Assembly: GCA_964406665.1 (NCBI GenBank)
Contig: CAYOSQ010000002.1
Span: forward strand, 118,219-182,218
DNA length: 64,000 bases
Reading direction: 5' to 3'
From: an uncultured Planctomycetia bacterium
Lineage (GTDB): Bacteria; Omnitrophota; Gorgyraeia; VGKH01; JBHPFN01
The notes under the pieces are model-generated. The model was not told where the DNA came from, searched no databases, and was given only the letters and a program-made list of their open reading frames with translations. This document shows, piece by piece, positions 3,194-35,386 of the stretch (its first letter is position 1; each line of letters opens with the position of its first letter). A program made the translations under genes and the position numbers.

Positions 3194-4927
3194 TTATTCT
3201 AACGGTTCATCAGGAGTAGTTACTTTTAGTACCTCCTCTAAAGACGTAAGGCCGGCTGCAACTTTTTTTATTCCATCTTCTCTTAAGGTAACCATTCCTT
3301 CTTTCCTACTTTGTTGTTTTAAAACATTATCAGCTGCTCTGGATAAAATTAATTCTCTAATTTTTGGAGAAAGAGGCATAATTTCGGAAATACAAACTCT
3401 TCCCTTGTAACCAGTTTGAAGACAAGTTTTACACCCTTTACCTTTATAGAATTCTATAGAACTTTCCGCATTAGTGGTAATCCCTAACCGCTTAGACATC
3501 TCTGGACTAATATTAAATGGTTCTTTACACTTCTCGCAAATTTTTCTAATGAGTCTTTGAGCTACGATAGCTATAACTGAAGAAGAAATTAAAAAAGGCT
3601 CAACTCCCATGTTCACCAATCTAATTATAGACCCGGGAGCAGTTGTTGTATGAAGAGTGCTTAGAACGAGATGTCCTGTTAAGGCAGATTTGATTGCTAT
3701 GTCAACAGTCTCAAAATCTCTAATTTCTCCGATCATTATAGTGTCAGGGTCTTGTCGCAATATGGATCGTAGGCTTGAAGCAAAGGTAAGCCCAATGTCT
3801 GGTTTAGCTGTTACTTGATTAATTCCTCGTAACTGATATTCCACAGGGTCTTCAACAGTAATTGCATTTTTCTCAGGAGAATCAATGTATTTAAGTATCG
3901 AATAAAGCGTGGTAGTTTTTCCAGAACCCGTAGGACCACAAACAAGTATCATACCATGTGGTTTTAAAGAACACTCTTTTAAAACTTCTAATGGTTTTCC
4001 TTCAAACCCTAGTTTATCAATATCTAAAATTGCATTAGCTTTATCTAAAATTCTAAGTGCAACTTTTTCTCCCCAGCCAGTAGGTAAAATAGAAACACGA
4101 AAATCCACTTGTCTATTTTCAATCATCGTCTTGAATCTTCCATCCTGAGGAAGACGGTGCTCCGCGATATCCAGAGAAGACATAACCTTAATACGTGAAA
4201 CAATTGACGGATGCAGCGTTTTCGGAGGAGAATCAAGAGCCCTTAAAGTACCATCAATTCTAAAACGGATCCTTAATTGCTTTTCCATAGGTTCAATTAA
4301 AATGTCGCTAGCCTTAGATTCAATCCCTTGCCTTAAGATTGCCTCAGTTAATTTAATTACAGGAGCTTCCTGTGTTAAGCGCGTTAGCTCATCTATAGAC
4401 ATAGACTCTTCATCAGCTCCTTTTATTAATTCTAGTTTCTCCAACTTGCTTTTTTCCATAGAATCCATTATTTCTTCTAGTACCTGGTGAGAGTCTTCTG
4501 AATAATAGTTTTCAATTGCTTCTAATATTTCTTTTGGACGAGCAACCACGGTATTTATTTCAAATCCAGTTAATGTTTTTGCATTGTCTATAGCAAAAAT
4601 ATTTAAAGGGTCACCAATAGCAAGGGTTAGAGAATTTCCAATTTTGGAGACAGGAATGATTTGGTGGAATATAGCAACATCTTTGGGAATAACTTTGATT
4701 ACTTCTGGAGGAATTTTGATGCGTGCAAGCTCTATATTGGGGAGCCCCAAGCTTTCGCTTAAAGCAATTGCAAGGTCGTTTTCATTAACAAGTTCTAGCT
4801 TAACTAGTATTTCGCTTAATCTCCCGCCTTTTTTCTTTTGTTCAGCTAAGGCTTTGTCTAGGTCTTCCTTTGTGATGAGCTTATTCTTTAATAAAAGCTC
4901 CATTAAGCGTTCTTTAAGCGAAATCAT
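3194..4927 (-). CDS. pilB: Type IV pilus/T2SS assembly ATPase, PilB/GspE family, paralog 2.
   Basis: Walker A GPTGSGKTTT and a tetracysteine CEKCKEP...CKTCLQTGYKGR are present. Length is 577 aa with a GspE_N-like N-terminus. Confidence 0.9.
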   Translation of the reverse strand: MISLKERLMELLLKNKLITKEDLDKALAEQKKKGGRLSEILVKLELVNENDLAIALSESLGLPNIELARIKIPPEVIKVIPKDVAIFHQIIPVSKIGNSLTLAIGDPLNIFAIDNAKTLTGFEINTVVARPKEILEAIENYYSEDSHQVLEEIMDSMEKSKLEKLELIKGADEESMSIDELTRLTQEAPVIKLTEAILRQGIESKASDILIEPMEKQLRIRFRIDGTLRALDSPPKTLHPSIVSRIKVMSSLDIAEHRLPQDGRFKTMIENRQVDFRVSILPTGWGEKVALRILDKANAILDIDKLGFEGKPLEVLKECSLKPHGMILVCGPTGSGKTTTLYSILKYIDSPEKNAITVEDPVEYQLRGINQVTAKPDIGLTFASSLRSILRQDPDTIMIGEIRDFETVDIAIKSALTGHLVLSTLHTTTAPGSIIRLVNMGVEPFLISSSVIAIVAQRLIRKICEKCKEPFNISPEMSKRLGITTNAESSIEFYKGKGCKTCLQTGYKGRVCISEIMPLSPKIRELILSRAADNVLKQQSRKEGMVTLREDGIKKVAAGLTSLEEVLKVTTPDEPLE

Positions 4928-31242: not shown

Positions 31243-31995
31243 TTAAGATCCGGCAGATTGCTCAAGAACGTCATCTGGAATATCAAAGTTAGCATGAACA
31301 GCTTGAACATCATCATGCTCTTCAAGAGCTTCAACTAAATTGAGCACTGCTTTAACATCTGACCCGGTAACTTTTATGGTAGAACTTGGAATCATTGTCA
31401 GTTCTGCAGAATCAGCCTCAATATTGTTTTGCTTCAGAGCTTCTTTTACTTTTTCGAAATCCGGAACTGGAATCGTAATTTCATAATTTTTATCTTCTGA
31501 CTTCATATCTTCAGCTCCAGCCTCAAGCACTATATCCATCAGCTTTTCTTCCTCAATCTTCGATTTATCTACTAATATATATCCTTTTTGCGTAAACATC
31601 CAACTAGTACTTCCTGCACCAGCCATGTTGCCGCTTTTCTTAGAAAAAAGATTTCTTAGTTCTGCGCTGGTTCGGTTTTTGTTATCGGTTAATGCTTCTA
31701 CAAGCAAAGCAACCCCTCCTTGGGCATATCCTTCATAAACAACAGACTCATAAGTAACGCCGGGGAGTTCACCTGTGCCTTTTTTAATTGCTCTATCAAT
31801 GTTGTCTAAAGGCATGTTGCTTTCTTTTGCCTTAGCTACAGCAGAGCGTAATCTAGCATTAGTATCAGTGCTTCCGCCGCCTTCTCTTGCGGCAACACTA
31901 ATTTCTTTAATTAATTTTGTGAACAGCTGGCCTCTTTTTGCATCAGCAGCTGATTTTTTGTGTTTGATGCTTGCCCATTTTGAATGTCCTGACAT
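31243..31995 (-). CDS. yebC: YebC/PmpR-family transcriptional regulator.
   Basis: MSGHSKWASIKHKK N-terminus. Confidence 0.9.
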   Translation of the reverse strand: MSGHSKWASIKHKKSAADAKRGQLFTKLIKEISVAAREGGGSTDTNARLRSAVAKAKESNMPLDNIDRAIKKGTGELPGVTYESVVYEGYAQGGVALLVEALTDNKNRTSAELRNLFSKKSGNMAGAGSTSWMFTQKGYILVDKSKIEEEKLMDIVLEAGAEDMKSEDKNYEITIPVPDFEKVKEALKQNNIEADSAELTMIPSSTIKVTGSDVKAVLNLVEALEEHDDVQAVHANFDIPDDVLEQSAGS

Positions 31996-32120
31996 TCTCT
32001 CCTCCTTAAATTAAAATAATAAAGAAAAAATAAATCAAATTATTTTAACCACATATAAAAAAAGGATGATGATTTTTAAATTTAATCAGATTGAATTGTT
32101 TCTTTTTCATTACTATTTTT

Positions 32121-32560
32121 GTAGGGAGCAGGTTTTTTTTTCTCGCGATTGGCAGGTAAGCCGAGTTCTGTTGTTCGTCCGATTTTTGCGGACTAGATGA
32201 TCATTTATCTCGCCTCTGTGTTGCCACAGAGATCTTGCAGCCTACCCTCGCGACGATCTTTTAAAAAGATACGAGCGGGCCACTCTTCATCCAAAATGGA
32301 TTCATCGCGACTATTTAGCCTTGCTCAGCGCAGAGATTGCCTCGTTTCACTAACCTGATAACACAGGTTACTCGTCTCTGTGGCTCTACTTCTCATGAAG
32401 AGAAGCTACTTTAAAAAGTATATCCTACCCCAGAAAAGTTAACTGGGGCGTCCCGATTTTATCAGGATGCGCCGCCCTCTTGAGCCCGGACTTTCCTGCC
32501 CGACGCGTTGTCGGACTAATCATCTTTCCTGCCCGCGCAGAAAACATAACCTGCTCCTTT
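32121..32560 (-). ncRNA. rnpB: RNase P RNA (bacterial type).
   Basis: The reverse complement contains the universal P4 strands GGAAAGUCCGGGCUC and ACAGAACUCGGCUUA, with a P3-like hairpin GUCCGACAACGCGUCGGGC. Long-range pairing between 5' GGAGCAGGUU and 3' AACCUGCUCC forms P1. Local GC is much higher than the flanks. The ends are approximate. Confidence 0.85.
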
Positions 32561-32949
32561 ACAGCCTGCGTTGCTAAAAAATCAGCGTTTTGATTCTTTT
32601 CTCTGACAATATGAGTTATTTCAAAATGCTTAAAACCAGTAATCGCATGTGTAGCTATTTCAAAAAGGAATTTTATATTTGGATTTTTGACCTTGTATTC
32701 TTTATTTATTTGCTTAGCTAAAAGCTGACTGTCTGTTTTCACGGAAACATGCTTAGCTTTAAGAATGAGCGCGGCTTGTAAAGAAAATATTAAGGCAACA
32801 TATTCAGCAACATTATTTGTCGTATATCCGATATATCTGCCAAATTCTTTGACAACTTTATTATTTTTTAAAATAACAACGCCAACCCCAGCTAGGCCTG
32901 GATTTCCCTTTGAGGCACCATCAATAAAAATTTCAAATTTTTCTTTCAC
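32425..32949 (-). CDS. rnhA: RNase H (type 1, RNase HI-like).
   Basis: IFIDGASKGNPGLAGVGVVI...NNVAEYVALI...KTDSQLL; the RNase H fold ends near residue ~133. The last ~40 codons of the ORF run into the 5' part of rnpB. Confidence 0.7.
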   Translation of the reverse strand: MKEKFEIFIDGASKGNPGLAGVGVVILKNNKVVKEFGRYIGYTTNNVAEYVALIFSLQAALILKAKHVSVKTDSQLLAKQINKEYKVKNPNIKFLFEIATHAITGFKHFEITHIVREKNQNADFLATQAVKEQVMFSARAGKMISPTTRRAGKSGLKRAAHPDKIGTPQLTFLG

Positions 32950-33671
32950 TGTTCATCCTCTATAAATAAAATCCTGGCACAAGCTTCGCAAACTACTATG
33001 CGATCTTTCATTTTAATTTCATTAACAATCTGTGGTGTTACGGTTAAGTGACAACCCATGCAAGCAAAATCTTTAACAGGGCTTAACGCATGTCCATCTC
33101 GACTAATCAATATTTTCTCATACTGAGAAAGAATGGTTCTTTCAATATCGGGTAGAATTTGAGACCTTTGAGCTTCAAATTTTTTTAGAGCTTCTCCTAT
33201 TTCTTTTATTCTGTCGTCAACTTCTTTCTTTTGTGAATTAAAAACCTGCTCTTCCTCATTAAGCCTTGTCTGCTCCGTAGTTATTTTATCACCAAGAGAG
33301 TCCACTTGGTCAAAATTATTTAGAATCTCTTCTTCAAGCACAGACTTATCAGCTTTTGCAGAATCAATCTCTGAGAGCATGGCTGAATATTCTTTATTAG
33401 TTTTTAGTGCAGATAATTGATTATTTAACTTGGCTATTCCTTCTTCTTTTGACAAAAGCTGATTTTCTTTATCTTTTCTGTTTACTAAAAGCTGTTTTTT
33501 CTGTTCTTCGAGTTCTTTCAAATGAGCTTTTTTTGCTTCAAATTGTTCTTTTAATTCAGCAATTTTAGCGGGTTTTTCTTCTTTTTCTTGATTCAAGGAA
33601 TAAATCTGAGAATCGATTTCTTGTAAATCTATTAGTTTTTCTATTTGTTCCTTGAAATTTATACTATTCAC
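32946..33671 (-). CDS. Zinc-ribbon coiled-coil protein (COG1579-like, C4 zinc ribbon).
   Basis: A long coiled coil is followed by CMGCHLTVTPQ...VCEACARIL. The ATG at 33725 in the ORF track lies inside tRNA-Val. The likely real start is the GTG at 33671, which is preceded by AGGAAA. Confidence 0.6.
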   Translation of the reverse strand: MNSINFKEQIEKLIDLQEIDSQIYSLNQEKEEKPAKIAELKEQFEAKKAHLKELEEQKKQLLVNRKDKENQLLSKEEGIAKLNNQLSALKTNKEYSAMLSEIDSAKADKSVLEEEILNNFDQVDSLGDKITTEQTRLNEEEQVFNSQKKEVDDRIKEIGEALKKFEAQRSQILPDIERTILSQYEKILISRDGHALSPVKDFACMGCHLTVTPQIVNEIKMKDRIVVCEACARILFIEDEQ

Positions 33672-33691
33672 AAATTTCCTTTTTTTCAATA

Positions 33692-33765
33692 TGGGCGATA
33701 CAGGATTTGAACCTGTGACCTCCACAATGTGAGTGTGGCGCTCTAACCAACTGAGCTAACCGCCC
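33692..33765 (-). tRNA. tRNA-Val (anticodon CAC).
   Basis: I folded the cloverleaf by hand. The acceptor pairs GGGCGGU/AUCGCCC, the anticodon stem CCACA/UGUGG, and the anticodon loop is CUCACAU. The T-loop is GGUUCAAAUCC. The 3' CCA is not encoded. Confidence 0.9.
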
Positions 33766-33781
33766 TCCTAATAGTATTCTC

Positions 33782-33855
33782 TGGGCCCAAGAGGACTCGA
33801 ACCTCTGACCAGCTGATTATGAGTCAGCTGCTCTAACCGACTGAGCTATGGGCCC
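33782..33855 (-). tRNA. tRNA with anticodon CAU. It is an elongator tRNA-Met or a tRNA-Ile2 (lysidine).
   Basis: Acceptor GGGCCCA/UGGGCCC (G1-C72, so not an initiator). The anticodon loop is CUCAUAA and the T-loop is GGUUCGAGUCC. C4-G69 and C5-G68, together with the anticodon stem GCUGA, resemble tRNA-Ile2. Confidence 0.85.
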
Positions 33856-33972
33856 TGATTATCTTAAACTGAAAAATTATTATACTTGCTTTCTGAGCCT
33901 ATGTAAAGTTTTTTATTACAATAATTTAAATAAACTTTAAGTGTAGTTTTTTGGGGAGATTTAAAGAAATTG

Positions 33973-34560
33973 TTATCTGGCAGAAACTCCGGGCAAACGT
34001 ACCGAAGTAGATATTTCAATTCGTGGATTTTCGATTGATTCTGGTTGCGAAAAATCATCCAAAGCAGCTATGGAAAAATTAATAAAGGGAGACGACGAGT
34101 CTCCAGTATCGTCAAAATTTACAGAAATGATATTGTTCGCAATAATATCATAGTTTAAGCCAGAATCATGGGAAACTCGAAACTGTCCGTTTCCAGCATT
34201 GTAATCGTAAAGTATGCTATAGGTATCAGCTGCATCAACTTTTCCATCATAGGGAAAACTATCTGGTCTAATTTGAACACCTTCACCACCTGCAACTATC
34301 ATAACCCCACGCATAGATCCGTCTCCGGGATCAAGCGCACCATAGCCAATAGCCTTGACTAAATCAGAAACAACACTTTCTGTTGCCAAGCCAACTTCAT
34401 TGGCTATTTGAGATTGTTTGCTGGCATTATGAAGCATTCGCCTGGCAACGATATCAACGCTTGTAGCAGCTCCGATTGCAAGCGCAATTAGACCAGCCGC
34501 AATTATAAGCTCTGTTAATGTAATACCTTTTTTATTAGAGAAGTGTTTAATTTGGCTCAT
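33973..34560 (-). CDS. Type IV pilin-like protein (minor pilin/pseudopilin) with a prepilin N-terminal cleavage/methylation motif.
   Basis: N-terminus KKGITLTELIIAAGLIALAIG, which is a class III signal with Ile in place of Phe. Confidence 0.6.
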   Translation of the reverse strand: MSQIKHFSNKKGITLTELIIAAGLIALAIGAATSVDIVARRMLHNASKQSQIANEVGLATESVVSDLVKAIGYGALDPGDGSMRGVMIVAGGEGVQIRPDSFPYDGKVDAADTYSILYDYNAGNGQFRVSHDSGLNYDIIANNIISVNFDDTGDSSSPFINFSIAALDDFSQPESIENPRIEISTSVRLPGVSAR

Positions 34561-34996
34561 CCCAGGAAATAATTATTTCAACTTTACGCATCGGCTCGCC
34601 AGCAAAAGGCTCGGTAACTTCATATATCACAGATAAGTTTTCAACATTAGTTTTAAGCGGGTGATCTGCCGGAACAGAACCAGCAATTTCTGTTGGAACG
34701 CCCAGCGGCCATAATGGATTTGCTGCATTCTCCCAGAGCTCTGCTCCAACGCCTCTGTTAAAATTTTCTAGAAAATCAGTTGCTAAAGTTGCAGCTTGAA
34801 GTCTACGTTGTGACCGGCTGATAAATTTATTTGCTGCAACAAAAGCACCAATAATTCCTGCTGTAACAGTTGCCAGAAGAATCATTGAGATTAGTATTTC
34901 AATTAGAGTAAACCCTGCCAAACGGTTGTTTTTCGCTAACCGCAAAGCAGGGTTTAATATTTTTTTTCTTAAATCTTTGCTTTTCAAATTACGCAA
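34547..34996 (-). CDS. Type IV pilin/pseudopilin.
   Basis: AGFTLIEILISMILLATVTAGIIG follows an unusually long basic leader of ~28 aa. Confidence 0.65.
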   Translation of the reverse strand: MRNLKSKDLRKKILNPALRLAKNNRLAGFTLIEILISMILLATVTAGIIGAFVAANKFISRSQRRLQAATLATDFLENFNRGVGAELWENAANPLWPLGVPTEIAGSVPADHPLKTNVENLSVIYEVTEPFAGEPMRKVEIIISWDEPN

Positions 34997-34999
34997 TGA

Positions 35000-35386
35000 T
35001 TAAAAAGCGTTTAGAAATGTTCCAGTACCAGAAAGAGATCCGTCTCCACACATTATAACAGTTCCTCCTGCTGCTTCTGTCCAAGTAGCAGTAAGAGTAA
35101 AGTCAGCACTAGCGCATGCTCCAGGTACGACAATTCCATAAGTGAACGCGGCTCCGCCAGCGATATCAGGATCTTCTATATCCAAATCACCTTTATTAGC
35201 AGTATAGGAATTGTTTACGGCAAAATAGCGGAATTCAGCACTTCTTAAAGCTCCAAGGTTTAAAACAGCTTCTGAAGCTGTTGCCTTTCTGGTTGTGTCA
35301 ATAAACCTAGGTAGTGCCATGCTGGCTAAGATACCAATAATAATTACAACTATAATCAACTCTAACAACGTAAAACCTTTTTTCAT
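35000..35386 (-). CDS. pilA: Type IV major pilin candidate (PilA/GspG-like).
   Basis: MKKGFTLLELIIVVIIIGILA prepilin signal on a 128-aa protein with a C-terminal Cys pair (GACASADF...IMCGDG). Confidence 0.8.
   Translation of the reverse strand: MKKGFTLLELIIVVIIIGILASMALPRFIDTTRKATASEAVLNLGALRSAEFRYFAVNNSYTANKGDLDIEDPDIAGGAAFTYGIVVPGACASADFTLTATWTEAAGGTVIMCGDGSLSGTGTFLNAF

Follow-up and report, generated by a model that had tools for sequence, protein, structure and literature searches.

The rnpB genes of Escherichia coli and Bacillus subtilis are free-standing, and in both the transcription start is the mature 5′ end of the RNase P RNA. Here, we analyze a stretch of 64,000 nucleotides (nt) from an uncultured bacterium of the phylum Omnitrophota (contig CAYOSQ010000002.1 of assembly GCA_964406665.1, positions 118,219 to 182,218), referred to below as the window, in which rnpB instead lies among protein genes and has neither a promoter nor a terminator that is obviously its own, and in which the 5′ part of the ribozyme gene lies within the open reading frame (ORF) of an upstream RNase H gene. 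Organisms with this arrangement must form the 5′ end of the ribozyme in another way than the two textbook species.

The gene neighborhood closest to that of the window is the arrangement of dnaG, rpoD, tRNA-Met, DUF164 (flgZ, CT398), and rnhA described by Pereira et al. in 2011 (PMC3372290), in whose figure Borrelia burgdorferi is the one species with an RNase P RNA gene downstream of the flgZ homologue, marked there as “unique.” The window shares with that neighborhood the order of tRNA-Met, Zn-ribbon protein, and RNase H, but differs from it in two respects: pilin-like genes rather than rpoD precede the tRNAs, and the presence of rnpB after RNase H is not restricted to Borrelia, since it was found in 57 of 80 species loci, with an overlap of the two genes in about 43%. 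A study of the DUF34/NIF3 family lists COG1579 and COG0328 among the neighbors of NIF3, with rnpB unmentioned (PMC8469502). Our literature searches, which were incomplete in their coverage and thus leave novelty unproven, found no paper on an overlap between RNase H and rnpB. An RNase P ribozyme gene that is joined to, and often overlaps, RNase H in a tRNA-led operon of Omnitrophota and some other lineages is apparently undescribed, and the window presents the most extreme overlap seen, arising from an elongated P1 helix and a lost stop codon.

Two further classes of known systems are relevant for comparison. In dual-function RNAs, such as tmRNA, SgrS/SgrT, and RNAIII/hld, one region likewise serves both in a structured functional RNA and in an ORF; their peptides are conserved and functional, whereas the peptide read from the window is unconserved in frame, length, and sequence. 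Noncoding RNAs processed from the 3′ regions of messenger RNAs likely share, by analogy, the same biogenesis, in which a stable structured RNA is formed at the 3′ end of a coding transcript. The RNA of the window differs from these in being an essential ribozyme rather than a regulator and in having its 5′ end upstream of the stop codon.

The RNase H and rnpB junction across species

The two genes belong to well-known families, of which they are ordinary members, and both, like the neighboring features of the block (Table 1), are on the minus strand throughout. The Rfam model RF00010 (RNaseP_bact_a) matched the window over its full length (model positions 1 to 367 of 367, untruncated) with 137.1 bits against a gathering threshold of 100 (E = 6e-42), which bears out the preliminary description of this DNA, where rnpB had been called from its P4 strands and P1 pairing. 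The hallmarks of the type-A family are present, namely the P4 strands (GGAAAGUCCGG... and ACAGAA.CCGGCUUA) and the long-range P1 closing helix, and P2 and P3 are shared with the family as well. By these family tests, the window rnpB is a normal type-A RNase P RNA gene, with a predicted activity in pre-tRNA 5′ processing. It departs from the family norm in a P1 that has been lengthened to ~27 base pairs (bp) through paired insertions and in the placement of its 5′ part within a protein-coding frame.

The RNase H gene begins at a GTG codon preceded by a Shine-Dalgarno-like GAGGA, and its start overlaps the end of the upstream Zn-ribbon ORF by 4 nt. The encoded protein matches the Pfam families RVT_3 (PF13456; amino acids [aa] 9-129, 80.8 bits against a cut-off of 21.6, E = 1e-22) and RNase_H (PF00075; aa 3-130, 52.1 bits against a cut-off of 25.8, E = 1e-13), and the residues D10, E49, D73, and D123, which we take to be the candidate catalytic DEDD set, are invariant in an alignment of 24 sequences (the window and 23 homologues). 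The closest described class is the RVT_3, Rv2228c-N-terminal, or archaeal type-1 class of RNase HI (PF13456, PF00075; PRK07238, NF041306), to which the window domain matches over aa 3-138. The scores against PRK07238, NF041306, and NF041175 (111 versus 326, 107 versus 300, and 92 versus 140 bits, respectively) fall under the NCBIfam equivalog cut-offs, so that the RNase H assignment holds at the family level only. Unlike most members of this class, the window protein carries a 41-residue extension, and the identical 174-aa protein (P0001) is present on six contigs.

The recurrence of the junction was examined in a survey of one genome per GTDB species, using patterns drawn from the catalytic domain only, which returned the 80 loci. 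The 57 loci counted above hold a full-length RF00010 match directly downstream of RNase H on the same strand, and the P4 motif was found in this position in about 60. Frame statistics, taken over 56 loci, revealed that the RNase H stop lies at a median of 3.5 nt before the 5′ end of the rnpB model and that the two genes overlap in 43% of these loci, over 1-80 nt; the 111 nt measured for the window by the same model is the longest of the set. In five species, rnpB starts 2-7 nt past residue 130 of the domain, and in the clade nearest to the window, where the KEQAK codons mark the start of the model match, the overlaps measure 64-70 nt. Most junction loci belong to Omnitrophota, and nearly all have one or two tRNAs ~1.2 kb upstream. 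We conclude that the RNase H-rnpB arrangement is ancestral to the lineage and recurrent in Omnitrophota and a few other phyla. The useful result concerns context: in the uncultivated phylum Omnitrophota and some other lineages, rnpB is not free-standing but joined head-to-tail to RNase H, with which it often shares bases.

The synteny is not universal: of the RNase H loci from soil metagenomes (~40% identity), 62 extended for 300 nt or more past the gene, and rnpB followed in only 3 of these. A scan of metagenome contigs with the window RNase H domain gave a best match of 52% identity, and most matches represented soil lineages at ~40%. Beyond Omnitrophota, going by the labels of metagenome-assembled genomes, adjacency of the two genes was observed in Latescibacterota (L057, with an overlap of 80 nt, and L064), Dadabacteria (L071), Ratteibacteria (L052), and Chloroflexi (L056). 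It was also seen in two genomes labeled “Deltaproteobacteria” (L072 and L078) and in Thermoanaerobacterium (L061).

The closing helix and the extent of the overlap

The RNase H frame overlaps rnpB by 111 nt (32425-32535) when measured against the covariance-model boundary and by 134 nt (32425-32558) when measured against the P1 strand homologous to that of its relatives. The figure of about 135 nt given previously is reproduced with the 5′ end at ~32558. The preliminary description had left room for rnpB to start later than modeled, in which case the gene would be mis-delimited, would begin downstream of the RNase H stop, and would not overlap it at all. The probability of this is negligible: the covariance search places the 5′ end at 32535 and homology places it at ~32558, both upstream of the stop at 32427-32425; the full-length model alignment has P1, P2, P3, and the P4 5′ strand upstream of that stop; and P4 (32496-32482) is itself inside the ORF.

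The two boundaries differ in how much of the closing helix they include. In the window, P1 pairs 32557-32528 with 32156-32125. Its outer part is formed by GGAGCAGG and CCTGCTCC, of which the former doubles as the RNase H codons K131-E132-Q133; inward of these follow UUAUGUUUU/A9 and then CU(G)CGCG/CGCGAG, and the helix ends in GGCAGG/CCUGCC. This long closing helix is kept in both the minimum-free-energy and the centroid folds of 32575..32110 (z = -6.5). In the nearest relatives, P1 comprises ~12 bp as compared with ~27 bp in the window, its 5′ strand (AAGAGCAGGC(C/G)A) corresponds to the K-E-Q-A-K codons of RNase H, and the Rfam model begins exactly at the K-E-Q codons (AGAGCAGG). Relative to these species, the window carries a 5′-side insertion of ~21 nt directly after GGAGCAGG (compared with five relatives) and a 3′-side insertion of ~24 nt directly before CCTGCTCCC, and the two insertions are mutually complementary. 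The outer 3′ strand CCTGCTCCC agrees with the P1 3′ strand of locus L087 (TCGCCTGCTCCC). Since the outer helix is homologous to the P1 of the relatives, the Rfam model caught only the inner, inserted part of the helix and under-called the 5′ end by ~23 nt. The homology thus argues for an rnpB 5′ end in the window at ~32558 and not at 32535.

The duplex formed by the flanks outside the RF00010 match amounts to -27.8 kcal/mol in the window, the strongest among the 57 loci. The closing helix was also considered as a general flanking “processing stem.” This candidate was rejected, as the flank duplex across the 57 loci (-12.0 kcal/mol) was indistinguishable in size from a control of mismatched partners (mean -12.1 kcal/mol, standard deviation 5). 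Homology of its outer part with the P1 of the relatives makes an elongated P1 the better reading of the helix in the window.

A sequencing or assembly frameshift had been raised as another explanation for the long frame, with the true RNase H ending ~40 codons earlier, and the length of most RNase H homologues (133-141 aa) would be in keeping with such an error. We nevertheless consider it exceedingly improbable. Contigs from four separate Joint Genome Institute (JGI) metagenome samples show 100% identity over the 1001-nt region 32000-33000, both alternative frames would still stop 16 and 20 nt inside rnpB, and homologues from independent assemblies of related species likewise read into rnpB. 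The JGI samples in which this contig occurs are 3300009374, 3300009405, 3300007511, and 3300009373.

To compare the length of the open frame with chance, each of the three frames was followed from the 5′ end of rnpB in 56 other species. Of the resulting 168 frames, 16% stayed open over 111 nt or more and 12.5% over 134 nt or more; measured from the 5′ end of rnpB through the first stop codon, the median was 66 nt. Mononucleotide shuffles of the 5′ part of the window’s rnpB remained open for at least 134 nt in 7.5% of cases. An open frame as long as that of the window is thus expected by chance within rnpB in 7-16% of cases. Stop codons are few in rnpB owing to its G+C content of 49% in a genome of 35%. 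A UAG in GCGUAGCGG, 29 nt past the start of P4, ends the frame in most members of the clade; it is lost in the window, where the frame continues to the next UAG. The loss of this stop of the close relatives, combined with the lengthening of P1 by paired insertions, accounts for an overlap that is unusually long (111-134 nt). The non-random part of the arrangement is the juxtaposition of RNase H and rnpB, which recurs in most of the Omnitrophota species examined.

The C-terminal extension of the RNase H frame

The absence of a stop until 32425 and a tail of about 40 codons, both reported in the preliminary description, were recovered here as 41 residues following Q133 (VMFSARAGKMISPTTRRAGKSGLKRAAHPDKIGTPQLTFLG), exactly as quoted there. 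The tail includes the segments AGKSGLK and AAHPDKIGTPQLTFLG, and 8 of its 41 residues are basic. Homologues align up to residue ~133, and a check of their C-termini, as had been advised, revealed no conservation of the tail, most homologues ending at the 133-141 aa noted above.

The same description had considered genuine dual coding, whereby the Arg/Lys-rich tail encoded by P1-P4 would be a selected RNA-binding extension of RNase H and one stretch of DNA would serve two RNA-processing functions. The part of this proposal that stands is that the same bases belong to both an ORF and a ribozyme; the part that does not is a functional peptide, as frame, length, and sequence are unconserved while the RNA pairing is kept. 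The tail comparison covers the 120 homologue clusters listed. Among these, 100 reach a stop before P4, and the remainder read P4 in all three frames, as GKS(G/E)L in 13, RKVRA in 4, and E(E/S)P(S/G) in 3. The 13 clusters with a GKS[GE]L...QRAA-type tail in the same frame as the window, together with the basic residues, are what speaks for a selected extension. The basic composition is, however, explained by purine-rich RNA motifs such as AGGAAAG.

Within the KEQAK clade alone, the tail, counted from the ADKLA motif, reaches its stop after 14-16, 25-28, 30, or 40 residues. Comparison of the P0049 tail (KEQAKVVALAAKPERKVRAQGESVAVNSRQLDLFSG) with the P0011 tail (KEQAKVVAPTLSRRGKSELKRESVAANSRQPDLFSG) revealed a double frameshift within rnpB, out of and back into frame, that leaves the ORF open and indicates that the tail is not constrained as a protein. 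This observation is further strengthened by the P3 hairpin, where five pairs show compensatory double changes among seven clade members, whereas the residues encoded by P3 differ freely (PTTRR, PTHCR, PVSRR, CPPRLVA, and ASKG). Similarity among the tails is limited to the invariant ribozyme motifs of P4. Frame conservation and peptide conservation beyond the RNA constraint, by which a dual-function gene would be recognized, are both lacking. Moreover, 12.5% of the real frames overlap rnpB by 60 nt or more as compared with 29-32% of the two alternative frames (Wilcoxon p = 0.02, across species that are phylogenetically non-independent), a difference that weakly suggests selection against long read-through rather than for it. 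Taken together, we regard functional dual coding as very unlikely, and the tail itself is probably meaningless.

In our assessment, it is likely that rnpB belongs to a polycistronic unit in which it abuts RNase H, that the RNase H frame ends at the first stop occurring in rnpB, and that the unconserved tail is a passenger. The two genes abut so closely that the last codons of the RNase H domain (K131-E132-Q133) form the 5′ strand of P1, and no stop codon is forced at the junction, so that the frame runs on to whichever in-frame stop comes first in rnpB. The proposed transcription unit would comprise the promoter, tRNA-Met, tRNA-Val, the Zn-ribbon gene, RNase H, and rnpB, followed probably by yebC and ruvC, and the ribozyme would be either excised from the polycistronic transcript or transcribed from a promoter within RNase H. 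The tail would owe its sequence to the constraints of RNA structure. On any transcript copy where a ribosome reached the tail, P1-P4 would be transiently unfolded, and copies cut at P1 would leave an RNase H message without a stop. The read-through is best understood as an accident, neutral or slightly deleterious, that results from the tight packing of two genes which are probably transcribed together. The locus nevertheless presents a natural case for studying the competition between translation and ribozyme folding on one transcript. Annotators should note that, in these lineages, the tails of RNase H proteins with lengths of 148-188 aa are translated rnpB and not new domains.

Several considerations weigh against this account. 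The read-through test is weak, given its p-value and the shared ancestry of the species. The frame reading GKSGL...QRAA is common to at least 12 cluster representatives of the closest clade, which were picked partly for long, query-like tails, and some lineage-specific use of a short basic tail is conceivable, if only in the strict sense. No relative of more than ~60% protein identity was found beyond the same population, which leaves the steps of P1 lengthening and stop loss undocumented. We infer co-transcription, and likewise the mature 5′ end and the processing enzyme. A promoter inside the RNase H ORF is likewise conceivable, the consensus scan for such sites being crude.

Transcription context and neighboring features

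A rival account holds that the extension is never made. The transcript may be cut at the rnpB 5′ end (~32558), leaving a stop-less RNase H message for trans-translation, or only a minor uncut fraction may be translated to the stop. This is consistent with a P1 that starts inside the ORF in the window and its clade, with the lack of room for an intergenic promoter in most species, and with the conserved GTTCTTTGA, a possible cleavage signal, just 5′ of P1 in many relatives. A gene all of whose processed messages lacked a stop would be costly, however; from the weak depletion of long overlaps, ribosomes seem to arrive in the region, and GTTCTTTGA is absent from the window. On balance, we find it unlikely that the extension is never made. 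A more elaborate possibility, which we hold to be more doubtful still, is a built-in switch in which each transcript would be either translated to the stop in rnpB, unfolding P1-P4, or folded and cleaved at P1, in which case the RNase H message would lack a stop and be passed to trans-translation. A switch of this kind would couple RNase H output reciprocally to the maturation of RNase P RNA; in addition, RNase P would act on the tRNAs heading its own precursor, and GTTCTTTGA in the relatives would be a cleavage or stop signal.

The motif GTTCTTTGA (variants CTCTTTTAG and TTCTTTTAA) always ends in a stop triplet and lies 0-20 nt 5′ of the rnpB 5′ end in L001, L004, L008, L011, L012, L015, L017, L030, L044, L062, and other loci. 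The sequence TCTTTG is strongly enriched immediately 5′ of P1, with occurrences in 12 of 56 loci where 0.5 would be expected (p ~1e-13), and in the window (32543-32534) the motif is absent or degenerate. The motif may serve as a signal for cleavage or as a barrier that stops several frames. Three other candidate roles were rejected: C-terminal codons of RNase H, as no more than 10 of 19 loci have the motif in the RNase H frame; a -10 or -35 box, as its distance from P1 varies over 0-20 nt; and a prfB-like CUU-UGA +1 frameshift site, as the frame is not kept. Directly upstream of GTTCTTTGA, a hairpin CCTGCC-(0-4 nt)-GGCAGG was observed in L008 (~3405-3430) and L012 (~3400-3425). This hairpin repeats the sequence of the P1 5′ strand and could compete with P1 formation.

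Table 1. Features of the RNase H-rnpB region, in coordinates of the window
Feature	Position	Strand	Basis or remarks
Best sigma-70-like match of the region	33879..33907	-	TTTACA-17-TATAAT, 11/12; upstream of tRNA-Met
tRNA-Met and tRNA-Val	33692..33855	-	33855-33782 and 33765-33692; head of block, 16 nt between
Zn-ribbon/coiled-coil protein (DUF164, CT398/CdsZ/FlgZ family)	32946..33689	-	Pfam Zn_ribbon_9, CT398_CC; NCBIfam CdsZ
RNase HI-family ORF, 174 aa	32425..32949	-	ORF and Pfam; GTG start
RNase H catalytic domain, aa 3-130	32560..32943	-	Pfam envelope
41-codon extension, V134-G174	32428..32550	-	Inner P1, P2, P3, P4, and downstream rnpB; stop TAG 32427-32425
Elongated P1, 5′ strand	32528..32558	-	Outer GGAGCAGG 32557-32550; inner GGGCAGG 32534-32528
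rnpB, type-A RNase P RNA core	32145..32535	-	Rfam RF00010 covariance model
P4 5′ strand GGAAAGTCCGGGCTC	32496-32482	-	RF00010 and sequence; ORF reads G-K-S-G-L
P4 3′ strand ACAGAACTCGGCTTA	32171-32157	-	RF00010 and sequence
Elongated P1, 3′ strand	32125..32156	-	CCTGCC 32156-32151; CGCGAG 32147-32142; A9 32141-32133; CCTGCTCC 32132-32125
yebC (TACO1/YebC family)	31243..31995	-	Next gene; then ruvC, ruvA, scpB

Between 27.4 and 38.4 kb of the window, all ORFs of 100 aa or more are on the minus strand, with spacers that are tiny or negative. The block runs from the promoter-like site through tRNA-Met, tRNA-Val, the Zn-ribbon gene, RNase H, rnpB, yebC, ruvC, and ruvA to scpB, and in many relatives yebC follows rnpB after 25-45 nt with a Shine-Dalgarno sequence. 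The sigma-70-like site upstream of the tRNAs, the one strong promoter-like site, represents a consensus match only, and the number of such sites in the region was not above that in shuffled sequences. A crude consensus scan found no promoter-like site before rnpB, where the spacer is negative, and no terminator-like site after it. Inspection by eye gave -10-like matches in the ADKLA codons and beside P1, which were inconsistent in their spacing.

The start of the Zn-ribbon gene is uncertain between TTG 33689 (the JGI call on contig L081), 2 nt after tRNA-Val, and GTG 33672, which is preceded by a Shine-Dalgarno-like AGGA. The longer listed ORF, with GTG 33725 as its start, runs into the tRNA and probably begins too far upstream. 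Upstream of the tRNAs, rpoD is present in relatives (L085 and the contig of P0040), and this place is taken in the window by the pilin-like genes. These comprise three small ORFs (33973-35386, minus strand), called by JGI on the identical contig L081, with weak Pfam matches to N_methyl (type IV pilin-like prepilin).

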